This document shows positions 5,621 to 63,807 of a DNA stretch of 64,000 bases, one piece after another. Positions within the stretch are counted from its first letter, which is position 1. Each line of letters begins with the position of its first letter. Location of the stretch: NCBI RefSeq assembly GCF_988242995.1, contig NZ_OZ547043.1. One strand, 5' to 3'. A program made the position numbers and the translations under genes. Below the pieces are notes generated by a model, which saw only the letters and a list, made by a program, of their open reading frames with translations, ran no database searches and had not been told where the DNA came from.

Positions 5621-6136
5621 ATGAAAAAAATTGCATGTCTTTCAGCACTGGCCGCAGTTCTGGCTTTCACCGCAGGTACTTCCGTAGCTGCGACTTCTAC
5701 CGTAACTGGCGGTTACGCACAGAGCGACGCTCAGGGCCAAATGAACAAAATGGGCGGTTTCAACCTGAAATACCGCTATGAAGAAGACAACAGCCCGCTG
5801 GGTGTGATCGGTTCTTTCACTTACACCGAGAAAAGCCGTACTGCAAGCTCTGGTGACTACAACAAAAACCAGTACTACGGCATCACTGCTGGTCCGGCTT
5901 ACCGCATTAACGACTGGGCAAGCATTTACGGTGTAGTGGGTGTGGGTTATGGTAAATTCCAGACCACTGAATACCCGACCTACAAACACGACACCAGCGA
6001 CTACGGTTTCTCCTACGGTGCTGGTCTGCAGTTCAACCCGATGGAAAACGTTGCTCTGGACTTCTCTTACGAGCAGAGCCGTATTCGTAGCGTTGACGTA
6101 GGCACCTGGATTGCCGGTGTTGGTTACCGCTTCTAA
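5621..6136 (+). CDS. ompX: Outer membrane protein X
   Basis: MKKIACLSALAAVLAFTAGTSVA signal peptide followed by a beta-barrel sequence ending ...GVGYRF; 171 aa. Confidence 0.95.
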   Translation: MKKIACLSALAAVLAFTAGTSVAATSTVTGGYAQSDAQGQMNKMGGFNLKYRYEEDNSPLGVIGSFTYTEKSRTASSGDYNKNQYYGITAGPAYRINDWASIYGVVGVGYGKFQTTEYPTYKHDTSDYGFSYGAGLQFNPMENVALDFSYEQSRIRSVDVGTWIAGVGYRF

Positions 6137-12907: not shown

Positions 12908-15283
12908 TTAACGCATCCATTCACTCCCTTCAACACCATTGACCAGCAGCGTGCGTTTTTCTTCCACTGGTAATGACACTTTCAGTGCACTCCATGCAGG
13001 TCGATAATCCCCGCGCGCGTTGACTTTCAGGTTGATGGTCGCCCCATCGCAAACCATTTCCCATTCCACCCAAAGCGCATTACCAGTTTGGTAGCCCCAG
13101 CTTTCGCCATCGTCTTCAAACAGCAGGCCGGACGTTGTGCCCACACCTTTCAGCGGGAACAGTTTCAGTTCGCGGGTATCGTCTTGTTCTGCGCTCACAT
13201 AGGTGATGCGTTTGCTGAGCGGTAGACCAGCCCCGGCACGCACCATCAGCGGCAGTTTCTCCAGCGGTGCGTCGAGGGTGATCCACTGACCGCCACTGAA
13301 CCATTCGCCGTTGTAGAAATCGTACCAGCCAGTTTCGTTATCTGGCAGCCATACACGGCGCTGGCGCTCGCCTTGCTCTACGACGCTGGCAACCAAAATA
13401 TCGCGACCAAGCAGGAAGTCATCACACTCTTCAAAAGTCTGAACGTCGTGCTCGTGGTCAAGGAAAGTCGGACGTAGCATTGGTTCATCATCGGCGTATG
13501 CCTGCCACATCAGGGTATAAAAGTAGGGCAGCAGGCGATAGCGCAACTCAATAGCGCTGCGGATCGCCGGAGTGACGCCCGGATACATCCACGGTTCGTT
13601 TACGGTATGGTCATCGTTCCACGAGTGAATCGTAAAGCGCGGATGCATCACGCCGTTTTGTACCCAGCGTACAAACAGTTCCGGGTCCGGCTTATCACCG
13701 GAGAAACCGCCGACGTCGTGACCGAGGTTATACAGCCCGGAGAGGCTCATCCCCAGACCCATGCGGGTGTTGTAGCGCAGAGTGTCCCAGCTAGTGCGGT
13801 TATCGCCACTCCAGGTCTGCACGTAGCGCTGCATTCCCGCGCAGCCGGAGCGGGAGATCAAGTACGGACGTTTTTCCGGAGCGAAACGCTGCTGGGCTTC
13901 CATCGAGGCTCGCATCATCAGCAGTGGCATCACTGGGCGAATATGTTTGATCGCGATCGTCTGACCAAAGCCGTGACAGCGTGCTTCACCGTCCCATACT
14001 TCGAATTCGTTGTTGTCGTTCCAGGTGGAGTCGATACCCATCTCCAGAAGCTGTGTGGTCACGCCTTCCTGCCACCACTGGATGGTCTGCGGATTAGTAA
14101 AGTCGAGGTTAGAACCTTCGTCATCCCAGAAGCTGGAACGTTCTGGTTCATCTGTTTCTGAATCACGGATGAACAGTCCTCTTTCTGCCACTTCGTTATA
14201 GCGTGGGTGATCCTGCAACAGGCACGGCTTGATATTGGCGGCCAAGTGCAAACCAGCATTGTGAAATGCCTGGCTCATCACTTTCGGCTGCGGCACTTTG
14301 TCGTAATTCCAGTTGAACACATAGCGCTTGCCGTTAATTGAGGTATAACCGGAAGAGAGCTGGAACGAATCGCAGGGAATCGCATGTTCTTCACACAGGC
14401 GGATAAAGTTCATCAACTGATTTTGTGCGTCCGGCGCATCGGTGTAGTGCATAGTTGAACCGCTGTAGCCCAGGCTCCATTTCGGTCCGAACAGGGTTTT
14501 GCCGGTCAGGCGTACGAAGGCTTTGGTGATATCAAGTACGCGTTCGCCGGTAAACAGGTAGTAGTCGATATCACCCGCTTCCGCCTGCCAGCGGCGATAG
14601 GCGGTGTGGTAGTTGTCGATCTCGTTGCCCAGATCCAGCCAGCAGCTGCTGAGGTTGTCATAAAACAGGCCGAAGCTAACGTCATCGCGGCGGGTGATGG
14701 TGAATGGAATGTGTTTGTACAACGGGTCAGTACTAACGGCGTTGTAGCCCATCGCGTCGAGGTTACGCATCTCGTAACGTTTACCGTTGCGTTGCAGGTC
14801 GCCGGCTTTATCTCCGAGGCCATAAAAGCGTTCATCTTTACGACGGCTCTGATAGTGCGCCACGCCGTCGCCGTGGGCATTCAGCAGATAAGCGCTGGTC
14901 GGGCGGTCATTCACCAACGGCAGCCATTCGCCTTCGTTGTTACGATAGTGCCACTCCAGCCACAGCGGCTGGTGAACGGTGGCACGCAGTGACTCGGTGG
15001 CGATAACCACGGTGTCGTCGTGCTGGATCAATGTCCACGCGGGCAGGCTAAAGCCGCTGAGATCTTCGCGGCTGCGCCCTTCCCATGGCACATCCTGCGC
15101 CGGAGCAATGCTCCAGGTGCGATCCAGCGCCAGCTCGCCTTTGCGTTTTAACAGCACGCGGAACAGATTTTCTTCCAGCACGTACAGGCACAGGATATGC
15201 TGGCCATCGACCAGCAGTTCAACGTGGTGGGCAGACTGTTTGTGCAGGGTCCAGTTTTTCAGCGTTTTCATGTTTACATCCAT
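12908..15283 (-). CDS. Glycoside hydrolase family 31 alpha-glycosidase, cytoplasmic, substrate unknown
   Basis: 791-aa ORF with a GH31 nucleophile-region motif (GIDSTWNDNNEF, compare WIDMNE) and acid/base-region motif (VQTWSGDNRTSW). No signal peptide. Start may be the ATG at 15283 or 15271. Confidence 0.85.
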   Translation of the reverse strand: MDVNMKTLKNWTLHKQSAHHVELLVDGQHILCLYVLEENLFRVLLKRKGELALDRTWSIAPAQDVPWEGRSREDLSGFSLPAWTLIQHDDTVVIATESLRATVHQPLWLEWHYRNNEGEWLPLVNDRPTSAYLLNAHGDGVAHYQSRRKDERFYGLGDKAGDLQRNGKRYEMRNLDAMGYNAVSTDPLYKHIPFTITRRDDVSFGLFYDNLSSCWLDLGNEIDNYHTAYRRWQAEAGDIDYYLFTGERVLDITKAFVRLTGKTLFGPKWSLGYSGSTMHYTDAPDAQNQLMNFIRLCEEHAIPCDSFQLSSGYTSINGKRYVFNWNYDKVPQPKVMSQAFHNAGLHLAANIKPCLLQDHPRYNEVAERGLFIRDSETDEPERSSFWDDEGSNLDFTNPQTIQWWQEGVTTQLLEMGIDSTWNDNNEFEVWDGEARCHGFGQTIAIKHIRPVMPLLMMRASMEAQQRFAPEKRPYLISRSGCAGMQRYVQTWSGDNRTSWDTLRYNTRMGLGMSLSGLYNLGHDVGGFSGDKPDPELFVRWVQNGVMHPRFTIHSWNDDHTVNEPWMYPGVTPAIRSAIELRYRLLPYFYTLMWQAYADDEPMLRPTFLDHEHDVQTFEECDDFLLGRDILVASVVEQGERQRRVWLPDNETGWYDFYNGEWFSGGQWITLDAPLEKLPLMVRAGAGLPLSKRITYVSAEQDDTRELKLFPLKGVGTTSGLLFEDDGESWGYQTGNALWVEWEMVCDGATINLKVNARGDYRPAWSALKVSLPVEEKRTLLVNGVEGSEWMR

Positions 15284-15285
15284 TC

Positions 15286-16593
15286 TCAGGCGCGTTTTGC
15301 GCGACGTTCAGCAATAAAGGTGACCAGGAAGAAAGCACCAATCAGGTCAAAGAAGCCCATGGCGATAAACAGGGGGTTAAAGCCGATTTTGTCAGCGGTA
15401 ACCCCGATAATCAGGGAGAACAGGAAACTTGCGATCCACGCGGCAGAACCGCGCATGCCGTTAACAGTGGCCATCTGACCTTTGTCGAAGGATTCCACCA
15501 CCAGTGCGCTCAGCATGCAGGAGATGATCTGGTGACCGAAGCCGCCGATGGAAATAAGGACGATGGCGATATACGGGTTATTGGTAAAGGCCATCACCGC
15601 CAGCGAAACCATCAGGAATGCGCCACTGACCGATGATGCGACAACGGAGTTCACACGACTCAGCCCAAACAGGCGGGTGTAAAGTTTGGTCAGATAGCCG
15701 CTGGCAATACTGCCAAGATCAGCGGCGAGGAACGGCAACCAGGCGAATAATGCGATCTGCTTAAGGTCCATGCCATAGGTTTTGGACAGGTATAGCGGAA
15801 CCCAGAAACTCATCACCGCCCACGCCGGTTCTGCCATAAAGGCCGGGATAGCGATACCGTAAAAGCGTTTATTTTTGCCTACGGTTTTCAGTGCGGTCAG
15901 AAAGGGTAACTTGACAGGGGGCGCTTCGTTATCCTGGCGGATAAAGTCCAGCTCGGCTTTGCTGAGGTTAGGATGCTTATCCGGGTTGTGATAGAACGCC
16001 CACCACAGCACCACCCACAGCATCGCCAGGATGCCAGTGAACATAAATGCACCCTGCCAGCCGAATGAAGCGTGGGCAAAATAGATAATCGGTGGGGCCA
16101 GCATGGCACCGATGGAAAAACCGACGCCTGCCCAGCCTGCGGCGATCGGGCGTTCTGATTTTGGAAACCATTCACCGATGGTTTTGGCGTTTGCTGGGGT
16201 TGCCGCGGCTTCCGCACCGCCCATAAAGAAGCGCAACAGCGCCAGATGTACCCAGTTTCCCGCCCCCGCATGCATCAGACAGGCCAGCGCCCACAGTCCC
16301 GCGCAGATCATAAAGCCCAGTTTGAGGCCAATGACGTCAATCAGCCATCCACACAACGGTTGGAATAGGGTATAGGCGAGCTGGAAAGCACCTACAATCC
16401 AGGAATATTGTTCGGTGGTAATCCCCAGGCTGCTTTTCAGTTCGGGGGCGAGAATACCCAGCGAGTTACGCGTGATGTAGTTGACAGTAACACCGAGCAA
16501 AAAAAGGACCAGTATCCACCAACGCAGATTTTTGACGATATGGCGCGGTTTACTGGCAGTCATATCGTTATTGATACCCTGACTCATATGCAC
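15286..16593 (-). CDS. MFS transporter, anion:cation symporter (ACS) family-like
   Basis: 435-aa 12-TM-type ORF with an ACS-like N-terminal signature (RWWILVLFLLGVTVNYITRNSLGILAPE...). Its stop lies 2 nt upstream of the GH31 ATG, indicating an operon. Confidence 0.85.
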   Translation of the reverse strand: MHMSQGINNDMTASKPRHIVKNLRWWILVLFLLGVTVNYITRNSLGILAPELKSSLGITTEQYSWIVGAFQLAYTLFQPLCGWLIDVIGLKLGFMICAGLWALACLMHAGAGNWVHLALLRFFMGGAEAAATPANAKTIGEWFPKSERPIAAGWAGVGFSIGAMLAPPIIYFAHASFGWQGAFMFTGILAMLWVVLWWAFYHNPDKHPNLSKAELDFIRQDNEAPPVKLPFLTALKTVGKNKRFYGIAIPAFMAEPAWAVMSFWVPLYLSKTYGMDLKQIALFAWLPFLAADLGSIASGYLTKLYTRLFGLSRVNSVVASSVSGAFLMVSLAVMAFTNNPYIAIVLISIGGFGHQIISCMLSALVVESFDKGQMATVNGMRGSAAWIASFLFSLIIGVTADKIGFNPLFIAMGFFDLIGAFFLVTFIAERRAKRA

Positions 16594-16881
16594 TCCACAG
16601 AATGGTATAGGGTTTGTGCGGCAACGTCAGAATGGAGTTGTCACACCACTTTTAACTTTTTGATAAATAAAGTCTTTATTGTTCGTTTTTCCATTATTTT
16701 TGTATGGAAGTTGTTCTACCAATTCACAGTAAGAGACCCTAAAAGCGAAAGAAAGCGGGTTTTGTGCACGTTTTTCCATGAGTGACTGATATACATTACT
16801 GAAATGGATTTAATGCCAGACAGAATGGGCTTTTTTGCTCATGAAAATTCTGTCATTTCCGAATTAGAGGCAGATCACAAA

Positions 16882-17985
16882 ATGGACAAGAAGCTGAAAA
16901 TCGCCGATATCGCCGCACGTACCGGGCTATCGCCGAGTACGGTTTCGCGGGTGCTGGCTGGCAAAGCGAATACCAGTGCACGCGCTCGCGAACAGGTGCT
17001 GGCCTGCGCGCGTGAGTTGGGCGTGATGGATGGCATGGCAGCAGGTCGTATGTTGCTGAACAACCTGATTATTTTCGCGCCGCAACGCGCTTTTGACCAA
17101 CGATCTGATATCTTTTATTACCGTGTGATCCAGAGCATCAGCAAAGCGTTATCGCCGCATGAAGTGCGGCTGCGTTACTGCGCGCTGGAGGAGTTTGACA
17201 GCGATCCCGCGCTATTTCTCTCGCGGATGAATGAAGCAGATACGCAGGCGGCGATCCTGCTGGGGATTGACGATCCGCACATCCATGATCTGGCCGCCGA
17301 TCTCGCTAAGCCTTGTGTGCTGATCAACTGCCGTGATGAACGAATGCGCCTCCCGGCGATTGCGCCGGACCATCGGTTAATTGGCGCGTTCGCCGCCCGC
17401 TATCTGTTTGAAATGGGTCACCGGGAGGTGATGAATGTGATGTGCCTGCGCCGCTACACTATGGAGCAGCGGTTTGCAGGGATTAAAGAATCATGGCGTC
17501 AGCATAATCTGGCCTTTCACCATGACCGTCATTTGCTGAATATCAGCAGTTTTAGCGCTAAAGAAGCGGAAGAAAAGGTCGGAGCGTGGCTGGATGCCGC
17601 CAATGGCAAGACGTTGCCGACGGCGTTTCTGGTCGGCGGGGATTTTATGGCGGCGGGAACGGTAAATGCGCTACATCGTCGTGGTCTGCGCGTACCACAG
17701 GATGTCTCGGTGATGAGTATCGACGGCTTTAACCTTGCGGCAATCGAGGATGTTCCCCTGACGGCTGTGCATGTGCCACGCGATGAGCTAGGCAATGAAG
17801 CGGTGCAAATGTTGCAACAGCGGCTGATTCGCCCGGATGCTCCGGTGGGCTCGCTGCTGCTGCACGGACGATTGGCGGTGCGGGAGTCAGTGCGGCGGGT
17901 TCGCCCAGGAAAAGGGAACACCGCCGTGGAACGGGAAGGGCTGTACGACACTCAGCTGTCGATTCCCAACGCTCGCTTACCGTGA
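16882..17985 (+). CDS. LacI-family transcriptional regulator, divergent from the MFS-GH31 operon
   Basis: N-terminal HTH KIADIAARTGLSPSTVSRVL followed by a periplasmic-binding-protein-like sugar-binding core. Start chosen at MDKKLKIADI; upstream in-frame ATGs exist, so the start is uncertain. Confidence 0.8.
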   Translation: MDKKLKIADIAARTGLSPSTVSRVLAGKANTSARAREQVLACARELGVMDGMAAGRMLLNNLIIFAPQRAFDQRSDIFYYRVIQSISKALSPHEVRLRYCALEEFDSDPALFLSRMNEADTQAAILLGIDDPHIHDLAADLAKPCVLINCRDERMRLPAIAPDHRLIGAFAARYLFEMGHREVMNVMCLRRYTMEQRFAGIKESWRQHNLAFHHDRHLLNISSFSAKEAEEKVGAWLDAANGKTLPTAFLVGGDFMAAGTVNALHRRGLRVPQDVSVMSIDGFNLAAIEDVPLTAVHVPRDELGNEAVQMLQQRLIRPDAPVGSLLLHGRLAVRESVRRVRPGKGNTAVEREGLYDTQLSIPNARLP

Positions 17986-36888: not shown

Positions 36889-37218
36889 TTACTTTGCAAA
36901 AACTTCCGGCCCTTTTATTGCCAATGTATTCAAAATACGTAATGCCGGGCCGCTCGGTTTTATTTCATTACGTTCCCATTTCGAGACACTTTCTTTTGAC
37001 ATTCCCATTGTATGTGCCAGCACGGATTGTGACATGCCGTATCGGGTGCGGATGGCTTTGATCTCTTCACCCGTCATTGATTTGACTTTGGCTATACGGG
37101 CGCTGACTTCACGAGCTTTGACCATGACGGCAATGGCATCAACTTCACTATCAGACATCAGGCCCAGTGCATTCAGTTCCTTTGCATCTTCCAGCATCAT
37201 TTGTAATTTATCGCTCAT
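36889..37218 (-). CDS. Type II antitoxin, HTH-XRE family (C-terminal helix-turn-helix)
   Basis: 109-aa ORF; the C-terminal segment ...IKAIRTRYGMSQSVLAHTMGMSKESVSKWERNEIKPSGPALRILNTLAIKGPEV fits an XRE/Cro-type HTH. It overlaps the upstream toxin ORF by 11 nt. Confidence 0.7.
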   Translation of the reverse strand: MSDKLQMMLEDAKELNALGLMSDSEVDAIAVMVKAREVSARIAKVKSMTGEEIKAIRTRYGMSQSVLAHTMGMSKESVSKWERNEIKPSGPALRILNTLAIKGPEVFAK

Positions 37219-37594
37219 TTTTCACCTCAATCAAAAAGCCAGTTTCGATCAAATCCTCTATTTGCTTATTGCTAAAGGCCAGAAATGCATTTGCCATTTT
37301 TTTGTAGGCCGCCAGTTCATCATCTTCGATTTCTTTGGTTCCTTTACTGCTTAGACCACTCTTGGACCAACCATCATAAAAAAACACATGATTTGCTGAT
37401 TTAAAAAAGATAATTGTTCTGGCTCCACCACTCTTTCCTTGTTGGAGGGGTAAACGTTTTTTGATGACACCGCTACCTAAATCAGCCTCCCATATGCCCT
37501 GCATCACTTCTTCAGCGGCAGCCATGAGAACTTTATCGTGAATACCAAGTTTTTTCGTGCTTTGGCTGAATCGTCTTGCCTTATACACACCCAT
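37208..37594 (-). CDS. Type II toxin, RelE/ParE superfamily (HigB-2/Gp49-like)
   Basis: 128-aa ORF preceded by SD AGGATGG; toxin-first gene order with an HTH antitoxin downstream, as in HigBA-type modules. The family call rests on pattern resemblance (GGARTIIFF...GWSKS...KEIEDDEL), not on an alignment. Confidence 0.65.
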   Translation of the reverse strand: MGVYKARRFSQSTKKLGIHDKVLMAAAEEVMQGIWEADLGSGVIKKRLPLQQGKSGGARTIIFFKSANHVFFYDGWSKSGLSSKGTKEIEDDELAAYKKMANAFLAFSNKQIEDLIETGFLIEVKNER

Positions 37595-39851: not shown

Positions 39852-40912
39852 ATGCATCGACAATCCTTTTTCCTTGTGCCCCTTATTTGTCTTTCTTCCG
39901 CTCTCTGGGCGGCTCCTGCAACGGTAAATGTCGAAGTACTGCAGGACAAACTCGACCATCCCTGGGCGCTGGCCTTTTTACCCGACAATCACGGTATGTT
40001 AATCACTCTGCGCGGCGGCGAGTTGCGTCACTGGCAAGCAGGAAAAGGATTATCTGCGCCGCTTTCCGGAGTGCCGGAAGTTTGGGCGCACGGGCAGGGT
40101 GGCCTGCTGGATGTGGTTTTAGCGCCTGATTTTGCTCAGTCTCGCCGCATCTGGTTAAGTTATTCCGAAGTTGGCGATGATGGCAAAGCCGGAACTGCTG
40201 TGGGTTATGGCCGCTTAAGTGATGATCTCTCAAAGGTGACCGACTTCCGCACCGTCTTTCGCCAGATGCCAAAACTGTCTACCGGCAACCATTTTGGCGG
40301 GCGGCTGGTATTCGACGGTAAAGGTTATCTTTTTATTGCTCTGGGCGAAAACAATCAGCGCCCGACGGCGCAGGATCTGAATAAATTACAGGGCAAACTG
40401 GTGCGTCTGACCGACCAGGGCGAAATCCCGGATGATAATCCTTTTATAAAGGAATCCGGTGCGCGCGCCGAGATCTGGTCTTATGGCATTCGTAATCCGC
40501 AAGGAATGGCGATGAAATTAATATCCCGCAAAAAGGCAAAAACTACGGCTGGCCGCTGGCAACCTGGGGAATCAACTATTCAGGCTTTAAGATACCGGAA
40601 GCGAAAGGGGAGATCGTCGCCGGGACCGAGCAACCTGTTTTTTACTGGAAAGATTCGCCCGCCGTGAGCGGCATGGCCTTCTATAACAGCGATAAATTCC
40701 CCCAGTGGCAGCAAAAATTATTTATTGGCGCGCTGAAAGATAAAGATGTCATTGTGATGAGCGTCAACGGCGACAAAGTGACAGAAGATGGCCGTATTTT
40801 AACGGACAGAGGGCAGCGAATTCGTGATGTTCGCACTGGACCCGACGGTTATTTATACGTTCTCACCGACGAGTCCAGTGGGGAATTACTTAAAGTTAGC
40901 CCACGCAATTAG
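39852..40912 (+). pseudogene. yliI: Soluble aldose sugar dehydrogenase (PQQ-dependent beta-propeller), disrupted by a frameshift
   Basis: N-terminal 218 aa (signal peptide ... NPQGMAM) are in one frame (ORF 39852..40667), and the C-terminal portion (GDEINIPQKGKNYGWPLATWGINYSGF...KVSPRN) continues in another frame (to 40912). The first frame degenerates into low-complexity sequence after position 40514. Confidence 0.75.
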
Positions 40913-48476: not shown

Positions 48477-49013
48477 ATGCGTCGCGCTAACGATCCGCAA
48501 CGGCGAGAAAAAATTATCCAGGCCACGCTGGAGGCGGTGAAACTTTACGGAATACATGCTGTTACGCACCGCAAAATTGCTACCCTTGCCGGGGTACCGT
48601 TGGGGTCGATGACCTACTATTTTTCAGGAATTGATGAGTTGTTGCTGGAGGCGTTCAGCAGTTTTACTGAGATCATGTCCCGGCAATATCAGGCATTTTT
48701 TAGCGATGTTAGTGATGCTCAAGGCGCATGCCAGGCTATCACCGATATGATCTACAGCTCACAGGTTGCAACGCCGGATAACATGGAGCTGATGTACCAG
48801 CTCTACGCGCTGGCTAGCCGAAAACCGCTATTAAAAACGGTAATGCAAAACTGGATGCAGCGCAGTCAGCAAACGCTCGAACAATGGTTTGAACCCGGAA
48901 CCGCCCGCGCGCTTGATGCGTTTATTGAGGGGATGACGCTGCATTTTGTCACCGACCGTAAGCCGCTATCGCGCGAGGAGATTTTGAGGATGGTTGAGAG
49001 GGTTGCAGGGTAG
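48477..49013 (+). CDS. rcdA: TetR-family transcriptional regulator
   Basis: Start [49 protein letters not shown] (TetR HTH); 178 aa. Confidence 0.9.
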
Positions 49014-49032
49014 TAGATAAATTATAGGCAAC

Positions 49033-49111
49033 AAAAAACCCACCAACCTTGAACCGAAATGGCGGGGTTGATGGGCTCCACAAAATGGGGACATCAAAGA
49101 AAAGCAGTGGC
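49033..49111 (-). ncRNA. rybB: RybB small RNA (sigma-E-dependent, represses OMP mRNAs)
   Basis: Minus strand reads GCCACTGCTTTTCTTTGATGTCCCCATTTTGTGGAGCCCATCAACCCCGCCATTTCGGTTCAAGGTTGGTGGGTTTTTT, which is the RybB sequence as I recall it, ending in a terminator hairpin plus U-tract. Confidence 0.9.
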
Positions 49112-49146
49112 ACTAATTAAGACTGATGCCCTGCGGAAAAGTTCTG
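49112..49146 (-). promoter_or_regulatory. Sigma-E-type promoter of rybB (-35 GAACTT, -10 TCTTAA-like)
   Basis: Minus strand upstream of the RybB 5' end reads GCAGAACTTTTCCGCAGGGCATCAGTCTTAATTAGT. Confidence 0.6.
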
Positions 49147-49187
49147 CGGTTGTGCAAAAAAATTTCATTTTCAGGGCAACTTCAGTT

Positions 49188-50873
49188 TTATCCTAATCCT
49201 GGCCATACCATGACGATGATTGTCCCTGCCAGCGTCAGCAGGACGTTGGCGATTGCGTAAGTGCCCGCATAGCCCAGCGCCGGGATATTACTGCGAGCTG
49301 TATCACTGATGATCTCCATTGCCGGCGCGCAGGTGCGTGCGCCCATCATTGCGCCGAACAACAGTGCGCGGTTCATTCGCAATACATAAGCACCGAACAA
49401 GAAGCAGATAACCACTGGCACCAGACTGACAATCAATCCGGCAATCAACATCTGACCGCCAATCGCGCCCAGGCCGTTATTAATACCGCTACCAGCGCTC
49501 AGACCAACGCCTGCCATAAACACCATCAAGCCGAACTCCTTCACCATGCTTAATGCGCCCTGCGGAATGTAACCGAAGGTCGGGTGGTTAGCACGCATAA
49601 AGCCCAGCATAATTCCGGCGAATAACAACCCGGCAGCGTTTCCCATGCCGAAACTGAATGTGCTGAACTGGAAGGTGATCATCCCGATCATCAGCCCAAT
49701 AACAAAGAAGGCGCAGAATGCCAGCAAGTCAGTGACCTGGCTGTGAATCGAGATAAAGCCGATGCGATCGGCGATGGTTTTTACGCGACGGGCATCGCCG
49801 CTGACTTGTAAAACGTCACCTTTGTTAAGCACGACGTTGTCATCAATCGGCATCTCAATCTGGCTACGAATGACGCGGTTAAGGAAGCAACCGTGATCGG
49901 TCAACTTCAGTTGTGCCAGGCGTTTGCCAACAGCGTTATGGTTTTTAACGACCACTTCTTCAGTGACGATACGCATGTCGAGAAGGTCACGATCGAAAAC
50001 TTCTTTGCCATTACGGAAGCTGGGATCGAGTCGGGCGTGGGCGTCGGGGTAGCCTACCAACGCTATTTCATCGCCCATTTGTAGCACGGCATCACCGTCT
50101 GGATTTGCCAGAATCCCGTTACGCCGAATACGTTCAATGTAGCAGCCGGTTTGTCGATAAATACCCAGTTCACGCAGATTTTTGCCGTCGGTCCAGGCTA
50201 CCAGCTCCGGGCCGACGCGGTAGGCGCGGATCACCGGCAAATAAACCTTACGGTTGGCATCTGTGTCCAGGCCACGTTCGCGGGCGATTTGCTGGGCGCT
50301 GGTCTGTAAGTCCTGATGCTGCAATTTCGGCAAGTAACGCGCACCAACAATCAAACTCACCAGACCGATTAAATAGGTTAAGGCATACCCGAGGCTCAGA
50401 TTATCCAGTGCCAGTGAGAGCTGCCTGCTTTCCATGCCGGAATGACGCAGTGTATCGCCAGCACCGACCAAAACCGGTGTTGACGTCATAGAGCCTGCTA
50501 ACATACCGGCCGTCAGGCCAATATCCCAGCCAAACAGCTTACCTAACCCTAAGGCGATCACCAGCGCACTGCCAACCATCACCAGTGCTAACATTAGGTA
50601 ATTTTTCCCATCGCGAAAAAAAATGGAAAAAAAGTTCGGTCCGGCTTCGACCCCGACGCAGAAAATAAACAGCATAAAGCCAAGATTAAGCGCGTCGGTG
50701 TTAATGCTGAAATGTTGTTGGCCTAATAACAGCGATACGACTAAAACGCCAATGGAATTACCCAGTTGGATCGAACCAAGTCGTAATTTCCCGAGACATA
50801 GCCCAAGCGCGAGGACCACAAATAATAACAGAATGTAATTCCCATTTAACAATTCGGCGACGTTTATATTCAC
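49188..50873 (-). CDS. ybjL: Putative transporter with two TrkA-C (RCK C-terminal) domains
   Basis: 561-aa membrane ORF; matches YbjL. Confidence 0.9.
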
Positions 50874-63075: not shown

Positions 63076-63807
63076 TTACTTCTGGAACCATTTGTTATAG
63101 ATGGTTTCGTAAGTGCCATCTTTCTTCACTTTTTCCAGCGCAGTGTTGAGTTTCTGCTGCAGTTCAGTGTTGCCCTGACGTACCGCGATGCCGAGGCCAG
63201 TACCGAAATAATCTTTATCGGTCACTTTATCGCCCACTGCCGCCAGTTTCGGGTTGTCTTTCAGCCACTCGGTGACCACTGCAGTGTCACCGAATACGCT
63301 GTCGATACGACCGTTTTGCAGATCCAGTTTTGCGTTCTGGTAGCTGTCATACGGAACGGTGGTGATTTCCGGGTGCTTATCCATAATGAACTTCTGGTGT
63401 GTCGTCCCGTTCTGAACGCCGACTTTTTTGCCTTTCAGCTGATCAACACTGGTGTATTTGCCTTGCTGACCCACAAACAGGGCAGAGTTGTCATAGTACG
63501 GCGTGGTAAACAGCACCTGCTTTTCACGCTCCGGAGTGATATCCATGCCCGCCATCACTGCTTCTACGCGACGGAATTTCAGGCTTGGGATCAGGCTGTC
63601 AAACGCCTGGTTAGAGAAAGTACAGGTTGCATCAATCTCTTTACACAGTGCCTGTGCCAGGTCGACGTCAAAACCAACGATCTGGTTGTTTGCATCAATC
63701 GATTCAAACGGAGGATAGGAGGCTTCGGTAGCAAAACGAATAGTTTCGGCAGCTGTGGCGGAAAGACTAAAACCTGCAATTAACGCGGCAATCAGAACTT
63801 TTTTCAT
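63076..63807 (-). CDS. artI: Arginine-binding periplasmic protein 1
   Basis: 243-aa ORF MKKVLIAALIAGFSLSATAA...; matches ArtI. Confidence 0.95.
   Translation of the reverse strand: MKKVLIAALIAGFSLSATAAETIRFATEASYPPFESIDANNQIVGFDVDLAQALCKEIDATCTFSNQAFDSLIPSLKFRRVEAVMAGMDITPEREKQVLFTTPYYDNSALFVGQQGKYTSVDQLKGKKVGVQNGTTHQKFIMDKHPEITTVPYDSYQNAKLDLQNGRIDSVFGDTAVVTEWLKDNPKLAAVGDKVTDKDYFGTGLGIAVRQGNTELQQKLNTALEKVKKDGTYETIYNKWFQK

Follow-up and report, generated by a model that had tools for sequence, protein, structure and literature searches.

The chromosomal rybB gene of an Escherichia coli strain, its sigma-E promoter and terminator, and an unoccupied prophage attachment site at its 3' end

Introduction

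The targets of the small RNA (sRNA) RybB have been studied mostly in Salmonella, where ompD, ompN and ompS are additional targets, and lpp is the target of another sRNA, MicL. RybB is transcribed by sigma-E as an RNA of about 80 nt, with decay of mRNAs for outer-membrane proteins (PMC1804206), and its promoter ranks among the three strongest of the sigma-E regulon (PMC4102768). MicA and MicL are likewise sigma-E-dependent, Hfq-associated sRNAs of E. coli that repress abundant envelope proteins under stress, and the target set of MicA is partly common to RybB (PMC4102768, PMC6694218); together, RybB and MicA target 31 mRNAs, including those of the major porins (PMC4102768). However, the sequences and loci of MicA and MicL are unrelated to those of RybB. 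In Vibrio cholerae, MicV/VrrA combines the same CRCUGCUUUU seed with sigma-E control, and E. coli RybB can substitute for it (PMC6694218), but MicV/VrrA is not homologous to RybB outside the seed, and Vibrio lacks a rybB gene. In addition, rybB is a site of phage integration, being listed as integration hotspot #29 for Felsduovirus prophages in E. coli (Hochhauser et al. 2023, PMC10121019), and a Fels-2-like island, Kpn38RybB, was described as lying "precisely within" rybB in Klebsiella (Hudson et al. 2014, PMC4048246).

Here, a 64,000-nt stretch of contig NZ_OZ547043.1 (hereafter the window) was analyzed with respect to the rybB gene that it carries. The closest described system is rybB of E. 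coli K-12 (b4417, RF00110), which has the same length and lies in the same ybjL-rybB-rcdA locus, with identical promoter, seed, linker and U-tract; it differs from the window by A69 in place of G69 and by four further substitutions after the U-tract. RybB of Salmonella enterica occupies the same spacer, STM0869-STM0870 (ybjK-ybjL) (PMC1804206), and shares with the window the seed, the architecture of the sigma-E promoter and the sequence of the terminator stem (loci L065 and L084), whereas its -10 element reads GTCATAC instead of GTCTTAA and its downstream flank differs.

Identification of rybB and comparative sample

A sequence-only reading of the window had placed a 79-nt RybB on the minus strand of the rcdA-ybjL spacer, preceded by a GAACTT ... 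TCTTAA promoter and closed by a hairpin plus U-tract, and had proposed an Rfam covariance-model scan as a check. The scan returned a full-length, untruncated match to RF00110 at 49030..49108 on the minus strand (model 1-79/79, 104.1 bits against a gathering score of 40, E = 2.5e-20), which was the sole gathering-level Rfam match across the whole 64 kb. The RNA itself occupies 49033..49111 on the minus strand (79 nt, GCCACUGCUUUUCUUUGAUGUCCCCAUUUUGUGGAGCCCAUCAACCCCGCCAUUUCGGUUCAAGGUUGGUGGGUUUUUU), with the +1 G at 49111 and the last U at 49033; the Rfam coordinates are shifted by 3 nt relative to those of the sequence-only reading because the model begins at RNA nt 4 and ends 3 nt past the U-tract. 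At 78 of its 79 nt the RNA is identical to the K-12 ncRNA rybB (b4417; NC_000913 887979..888057). The location, both promoter boxes and the terminator were all borne out at the positions read from the raw letters.

The rybB region was found in 5418 of 5426 complete E. coli genomes. In E. coli NY1601, the 1.7 kb around rybB is 100% identical to the window, and the whole window is colinear at 99.2% identity (BLAST), with a 55-bp indel. The locus is almost certainly the chromosomal rybB gene of an E. coli strain, complete with sigma-E promoter, terminator and an unoccupied attB, and nothing seen in the sequence contradicts its identification as RybB.

Upstream, rybB is flanked by ybjL (49188..50873, minus), which encodes a member of the aspartate:alanine antiporter family according to the list of open reading frames (ORFs) and the RefSeq annotation of identical DNA, and whose stop codon lies 43 nt before the -35 element. 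The convergent downstream neighbor is rcdA (ybjK; 48477..49013, plus). For comparison, species-representative genomes were scanned with an exact match to RybB nt 3-22, yielding at least 120 loci from Escherichia, Salmonella, Citrobacter, Enterobacter, Klebsiella, Serratia, Yersinia, Proteus, Providencia, Xenorhabdus and other genera. With this exact match as the entry, very divergent homologues fall outside the sample, and neither promoter nor terminator played any part in selecting the loci. Among the loci listed, synteny with ybjL is kept across genera, and in most related loci with enough flank the ybjL homologue ends 67-108 nt upstream of +1. The downstream side is more varied: among the 120 loci listed, rybB is followed by rcdA in 23, by ogr in 8 and by other or unassigned DNA in 78.

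In the non-K-12 RefSeq (PGAP) E. coli records inspected, rybB is unannotated, and the ncRNA appears only in the curated K-12 MG1655 record. Since PGAP leaves rybB unannotated, a spacer that looks "empty" in such records is no evidence of absence.

Sixteen records labelled "plasmid" match rybB (PLSDB, E. coli genomes), comprising seven of 4-5 Mb, larger fragments, and five of 36-74 kb; NZ_CP019246.1 and NZ_CP148399.1 are examples. Mobile plasmid copies of rybB were considered and judged unlikely, as the 4-5 Mb records are evidently chromosomes and most of the E. coli records also carry ybjL. This suggests that the plasmid-labelled ybjL-rybB segments are chromosomal pieces arising from assembly or labelling artefacts.

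Sigma-E promoter

The -35 element (aGAACTT, 49139..49145, minus, positions -34..-28, with GAACTT itself at 49139..49144) and the -10 element (GTCTTAA, 49117..49123, minus, positions -12..-6, with TCTTAA itself at 49117..49122) are laid out as GAACTT, a 16-nt spacer, TCTTAA, 5 nt and the +1 G at 49111. Both boxes match the K-12 rybB promoter base for base, and the published sigma-E consensus is GGAACTTTT for the -35 and GTCAAA for the -10 element (PMC1804206). Across the 116 Enterobacterales sequences, each from a different species among the loci listed, GAACTTT at -33..-27 is kept in 114-116, and G-12, T-11, C-10, A-7, T-1 and G+1 are invariant (116/116). The spacer from -25 to -14 varies freely in the same sequences, with all four bases represented.

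Upstream of the -35 element, and beyond the end coordinate of the sequence-only reading, lies an A/T-rich tract (49156..49171, minus, AAAATGAAATTTTTTT, positions -60..-45), which is a probable UP element. T is the commonest base at -50..-45, occurring in 66-103 of the 116 species, and in at least 94 from -48 onward (among the loci listed). UP elements add to the strength of sigma-E promoters, and rybB was within the promoter set studied (PMC3326320). Conserved boxes at a fixed distance, together with a UP-like element, constitute a two-box promoter signature that matches the published sigma-E consensus.

Seed, linker and terminator

The 5' target-recognition region (nt 1-16, 49096..49111, minus, GCCACUGCUUUUCUUU) is identical to that of K-12 and contains the CRCUGCUUUU motif at nt 3-12; both this seed motif and its function have been published (PMC6694218). 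Among the loci listed, nt 1-25 are invariant in the alignment of related loci, with the invariance of nt 3-22 being by construction, because these nucleotides served as the search pattern. The following A/U-rich linker (nt 26-34, 49078..49086, minus, AUUUUGUGG) is single-stranded, being unpaired in the Rfam consensus structure, and is presumed to be an internal Hfq contact by analogy with RybB described elsewhere, in which the 3' part comprises the Hfq binding domain and a rho-independent terminator (PMC6694218).

The terminator hairpin spans 49037..49077 (minus) and pairs nt 35-46 with nt 64-75; inside it, nt 49-51 and nt 57-59 form a second helix of 3 bp. The ViennaRNA minimum free energy (MFE) structure and the Rfam consensus structure agree on the 12-bp terminator helix, and the MFE of the whole RNA is -24.6 kcal/mol (z = -2.2). 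In the 63 distinct RNA sequences among the loci listed, 97.2% of the cells of this helix are paired, and both-sided (compensatory) changes occur at 7 of its 12 pairs, for example CCCAUCAACC/GGUUGAUGGG to CCCGAUAGUC/GACUAUCGGG. When the partners were slid by 1-3 columns as a control, pairing fell to 14-51%, and RNAalifold independently recovered the same helix. The hairpin is followed by the 3' U-tract (U6, nt 74-79, 49033..49038, minus, read from the sequence), in which T75-T78 are invariant in the alignment of related loci listed; it is the termination signal and presumably also the site at which Hfq binds the 3' end.

Two further helices were rejected, namely a 5' mini-helix in the MFE structure (nt 2-5 with nt 31-34) and a helix proposed by RNAalifold (nt 7-13 with the linker); neither has compensatory changes, and each would bury the seed. 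A consensus promoter and terminator scan found neither the sigma-E promoter nor the RybB terminator, because its promoter model covers sigma-70 only and its terminator loop is limited to 8 nt, whereas the loop of RybB is longer.

Prophage attachment site and the G69 allele

P2/Fels-2-like prophages use the 3' end of rybB as their attB, a fact already published but absent from the sequence-only reading. In the window, the attB core corresponds to 49017..49043, comprising RybB nt 69-79 and the 16 nt downstream. E. coli K_EC180 carries a P2-like prophage remnant of about 11.8 kb in the rybB-rcdA gap, with ogr beside rybB and the integrase beside rcdA, and both of its junctions repeat the core corresponding to 49017..49043. 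Four phage records match rybB; the one inspected, Klebsiella phage 4LV2017 (Peduoviridae), matches at its att-bearing end, where the annotated 19-bp attR is the equivalent of 49025..49043. The core of this Fels-2/P2-like (Peduoviridae, Felsduovirus) site is thus common to the window, the K_EC180 junctions and the 4LV2017 attR. Unlike the occupied K_EC180 site, the site in the window is empty; the rcdA stop codon lies 19 nt from the RybB 3' end, and the window is therefore without a prophage insertion. The same empty state is found in 4224 of 5426 E. coli genomes. In approximately 1130 of 5422 E. coli genomes (~21%), the local alignment breaks at 49013-49018, between the rcdA stop codon and the RybB 3' end.

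Over 201 nt, the window and K-12 differ at five positions. The two are 100% identical over the whole stretch that begins at the ybjL stop codon and ends with RNA nt 68, including the complete promoter; the sole difference inside the RNA is nt 69 (49043, minus), which is G in the window and A in K-12, and the other four are confined to the 14 nt that follow the U-tract, which read GTTGCCTATAATTT in the window and GTTATCTAAAACTT in K-12. All five differences thus lie within the 27-nt att core. The position of the att site at the 3' end would account for the clustering of K-12 differences there and for the flank being a hotspot of between-strain variation. The window agrees with the att/consensus state at two of the four positions downstream of the U-tract, where it has GC for AT, and a further AAT versus AAC position (5') also matches the att state if read in register from the shared TTTAT. 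Past the U-tract, the pan-enterobacterial consensus is GTTGCCTGAAATT, and the motif (G/A)TTGCCTGAAATT is conserved there over many genera, in empty and occupied sites alike.

Since nt 69 pairs with U41, the G allele converts the U41-A69 pair into a U41·G69 wobble, at a predicted cost (ddG) of +0.6 kcal/mol; the allele is predicted to be neutral. A U·G pair at nt 41/69 occurs in 2 other distinct sequences of the alignment (among the loci listed). Exact-word searches of 5426 complete E. coli genomes gave 738 with the G allele and 4523 with the A allele, and G69 is found in none of the 115 other species among the loci listed. Within E. coli, G69 is carried by lysogens (K_EC180) and also by genomes with an empty site, 135 of which match the window at 99% identity or more across the 58-nt junction. 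One scenario is that P2/Fels-2-like phages, by integrating and excising repeatedly, rewrite the rybB 3' end, such that phage copies rather than host function maintain the post-terminator sequence and G69 is a scar introduced by a phage, but we regard this as rather unlikely. G69 may instead be an ordinary lineage SNP, not introduced by phage recombination.

Alternative explanations

The hairpin and U-tract could in principle be a mere terminator of ybjL, perhaps also of the convergent rcdA, with no independent RNA. Between the stop codon of ybjL (49188) and the RybB hairpin, sequence reading and the terminator scan revealed no further hairpin resembling a terminator, and ybjL read-through probably ends at the RybB terminator. 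Nevertheless, a terminator would not explain why, in 116/116 species (among the loci listed), the sigma-E positions never vary and keep a constant distance to an equally invariant +1, nor would nt 1-34 be conserved as the mere flank of a terminator, and in K-12 the gene carries an ncRNA annotation and has a documented, sigma-E-induced product of about 80 nt (PMC1804206). Serving as the terminator of ybjL and being part of the RybB gene are compatible roles, hence this is no true alternative, and a terminator without its own RNA is very improbable. The promoter-like hexamers, for their part, could be a product of chance, with the RNA arising by processing of ybjL mRNA or from a different promoter. 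The pattern GAACTT-N15-17-TCNNA indeed has 2 matches in the window, where shuffles predict 1.25, so that the string alone occurs at chance frequency and is not significant; what makes the promoter significant is that it is conserved in 116/116 sequences and always equally far from +1. The boxes are conserved despite a variable spacer in 116 species (among the loci listed), and they are identical to the K-12 promoter that has been used as a sigma-E reporter (PMC12249550, PMC4102768), which makes a chance origin extremely improbable. The second, loose match (GAACTTCTGGTGTGTCGTCCCGTTCTGA, 63388..63415, plus) lies antisense inside artI and is consistent with chance.

A small protein would be another way to account for the region, as the six-frame list contains ORFs at 48949..49113 (minus, 54 aa, GTG start), 48966..49097 (minus, 43 aa) and 49059..49196 (plus, 45 aa). 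However, the RNA ranges from 76 to 84 nt among the related loci listed, and homologues differ by indels of 1-5 nt that would shift any frame; these non-triplet length steps exclude a conserved reading frame, and the variation tracks base-pairing, not codons. The minus-strand ORFs, moreover, extend through the attB core into rcdA antisense, a flank that is replaced by prophage or other DNA in ~21% of E. coli and in most of the related species listed. A coding function is therefore next to inconceivable, and the reading of the locus as a rybB gene with its own sigma-E promoter is retained.

ompX and the genomic setting

The sequence-only reading had also pointed to ompX as a known RybB target lying 43 kb away in the same window. 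The distance is correct, with ompX at 5621..6136 (plus), 42.9 kb from rybB, but its status as a target is not supported by the literature or by duplex energies. In the work of Papenfort (2006), ompX served as a "RybB-independent" control mRNA that showed no drop upon RybB induction (PMC1804206), and the validated E. coli pairs of TargetRNA2 place ompX under MicA and CyaR, not RybB (PMC4086111); a later (2022) paper loosely names RybB among the regulators of ompX (PMC8862304). As a candidate target, ompX was rejected: its best seed duplex reaches -11.3 kcal/mol, which 61% of random 210-nt segments of the window equal or surpass. Citing ompX as a RybB target is unwarranted, as the literature does not establish it, and the proximity of the two genes is without meaning, RybB acting in trans. 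Furthermore, the genes annotated across the window include no RybB target from the validated list (PMC4086111).

Two insertions in the window lengthen the distance between ompX and rybB to 42.9 kb, compared with 37.0 kb in K-12. Most of the extra 6 kb comes from a three-gene island at 12908..17985, between ybiT and ybiU, which encodes a glycoside hydrolase of family 31 (GH31), an MFS transporter and a LacI-family regulator. NY1601 has this island too, whereas K-12 and K_EC180 lack it. Between rimO and dgcI, at 36889..37594 (minus), lie genes for a RelE/ParE-family toxin (128-aa ORF) and an HTH protein (109-aa ORF), a pair that K-12 lacks (46 bp there) and that the annotations of NY1601 and K_EC180 call a type II toxin-antitoxin system. 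In yliI (aldose sugar dehydrogenase; ORF 39852..40667, plus), a 55-bp deletion relative to NY1601 at approximately 40506..40516 is flanked by a 10-bp direct repeat, TGGCGATGAA, and shifts the frame, giving an ORF of 271 aa instead of 371; judged by this frameshift, yliI is probably a pseudogene in the strain of the window. K-12 annotation additionally includes an sRNA, RybA, overlapping mntS (852725..853064), a region that corresponds to roughly 8.4-8.8 kb of the window; the Rfam gathering scan, whose library may lack a RybA model, gave no match near mntS.

Proposed function and significance

As seed, linker, U-tract and promoter equal those of K-12 and the change in the stem keeps its pairing, we infer the same function for the gene in the window, with sigma-E dependence, Hfq binding, target set and feedback carried over from K-12 and Salmonella. 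Under envelope stress, unfolded outer-membrane proteins would lead to the release of sigma-E, whose RNA polymerase would initiate at the G at 49111 from GAACTT-N16-TCTTAA, and the hairpin and U6 would end transcription to yield a 79-nt, Hfq-bound RNA. The single-stranded 5' end (GCCACUGCUUUUCUUU) would then pair with many mRNAs, mainly of outer-membrane proteins, including ompC, ompA, ompF, ompW, tsx and fadL, and this pairing would cause repression and decay of the targets, lowering the envelope load and feeding back on sigma-E.

For the biology of RybB, which is already known here, nothing new follows from the window; the gene carries a common minor allele. The value of the locus is that of a positive control, as the sequence-only reading had itself anticipated in calling it known biology: a reading made without tools recovered a textbook sRNA, a promoter of an alternative sigma factor and a terminator from the raw sequence, exact to the base.
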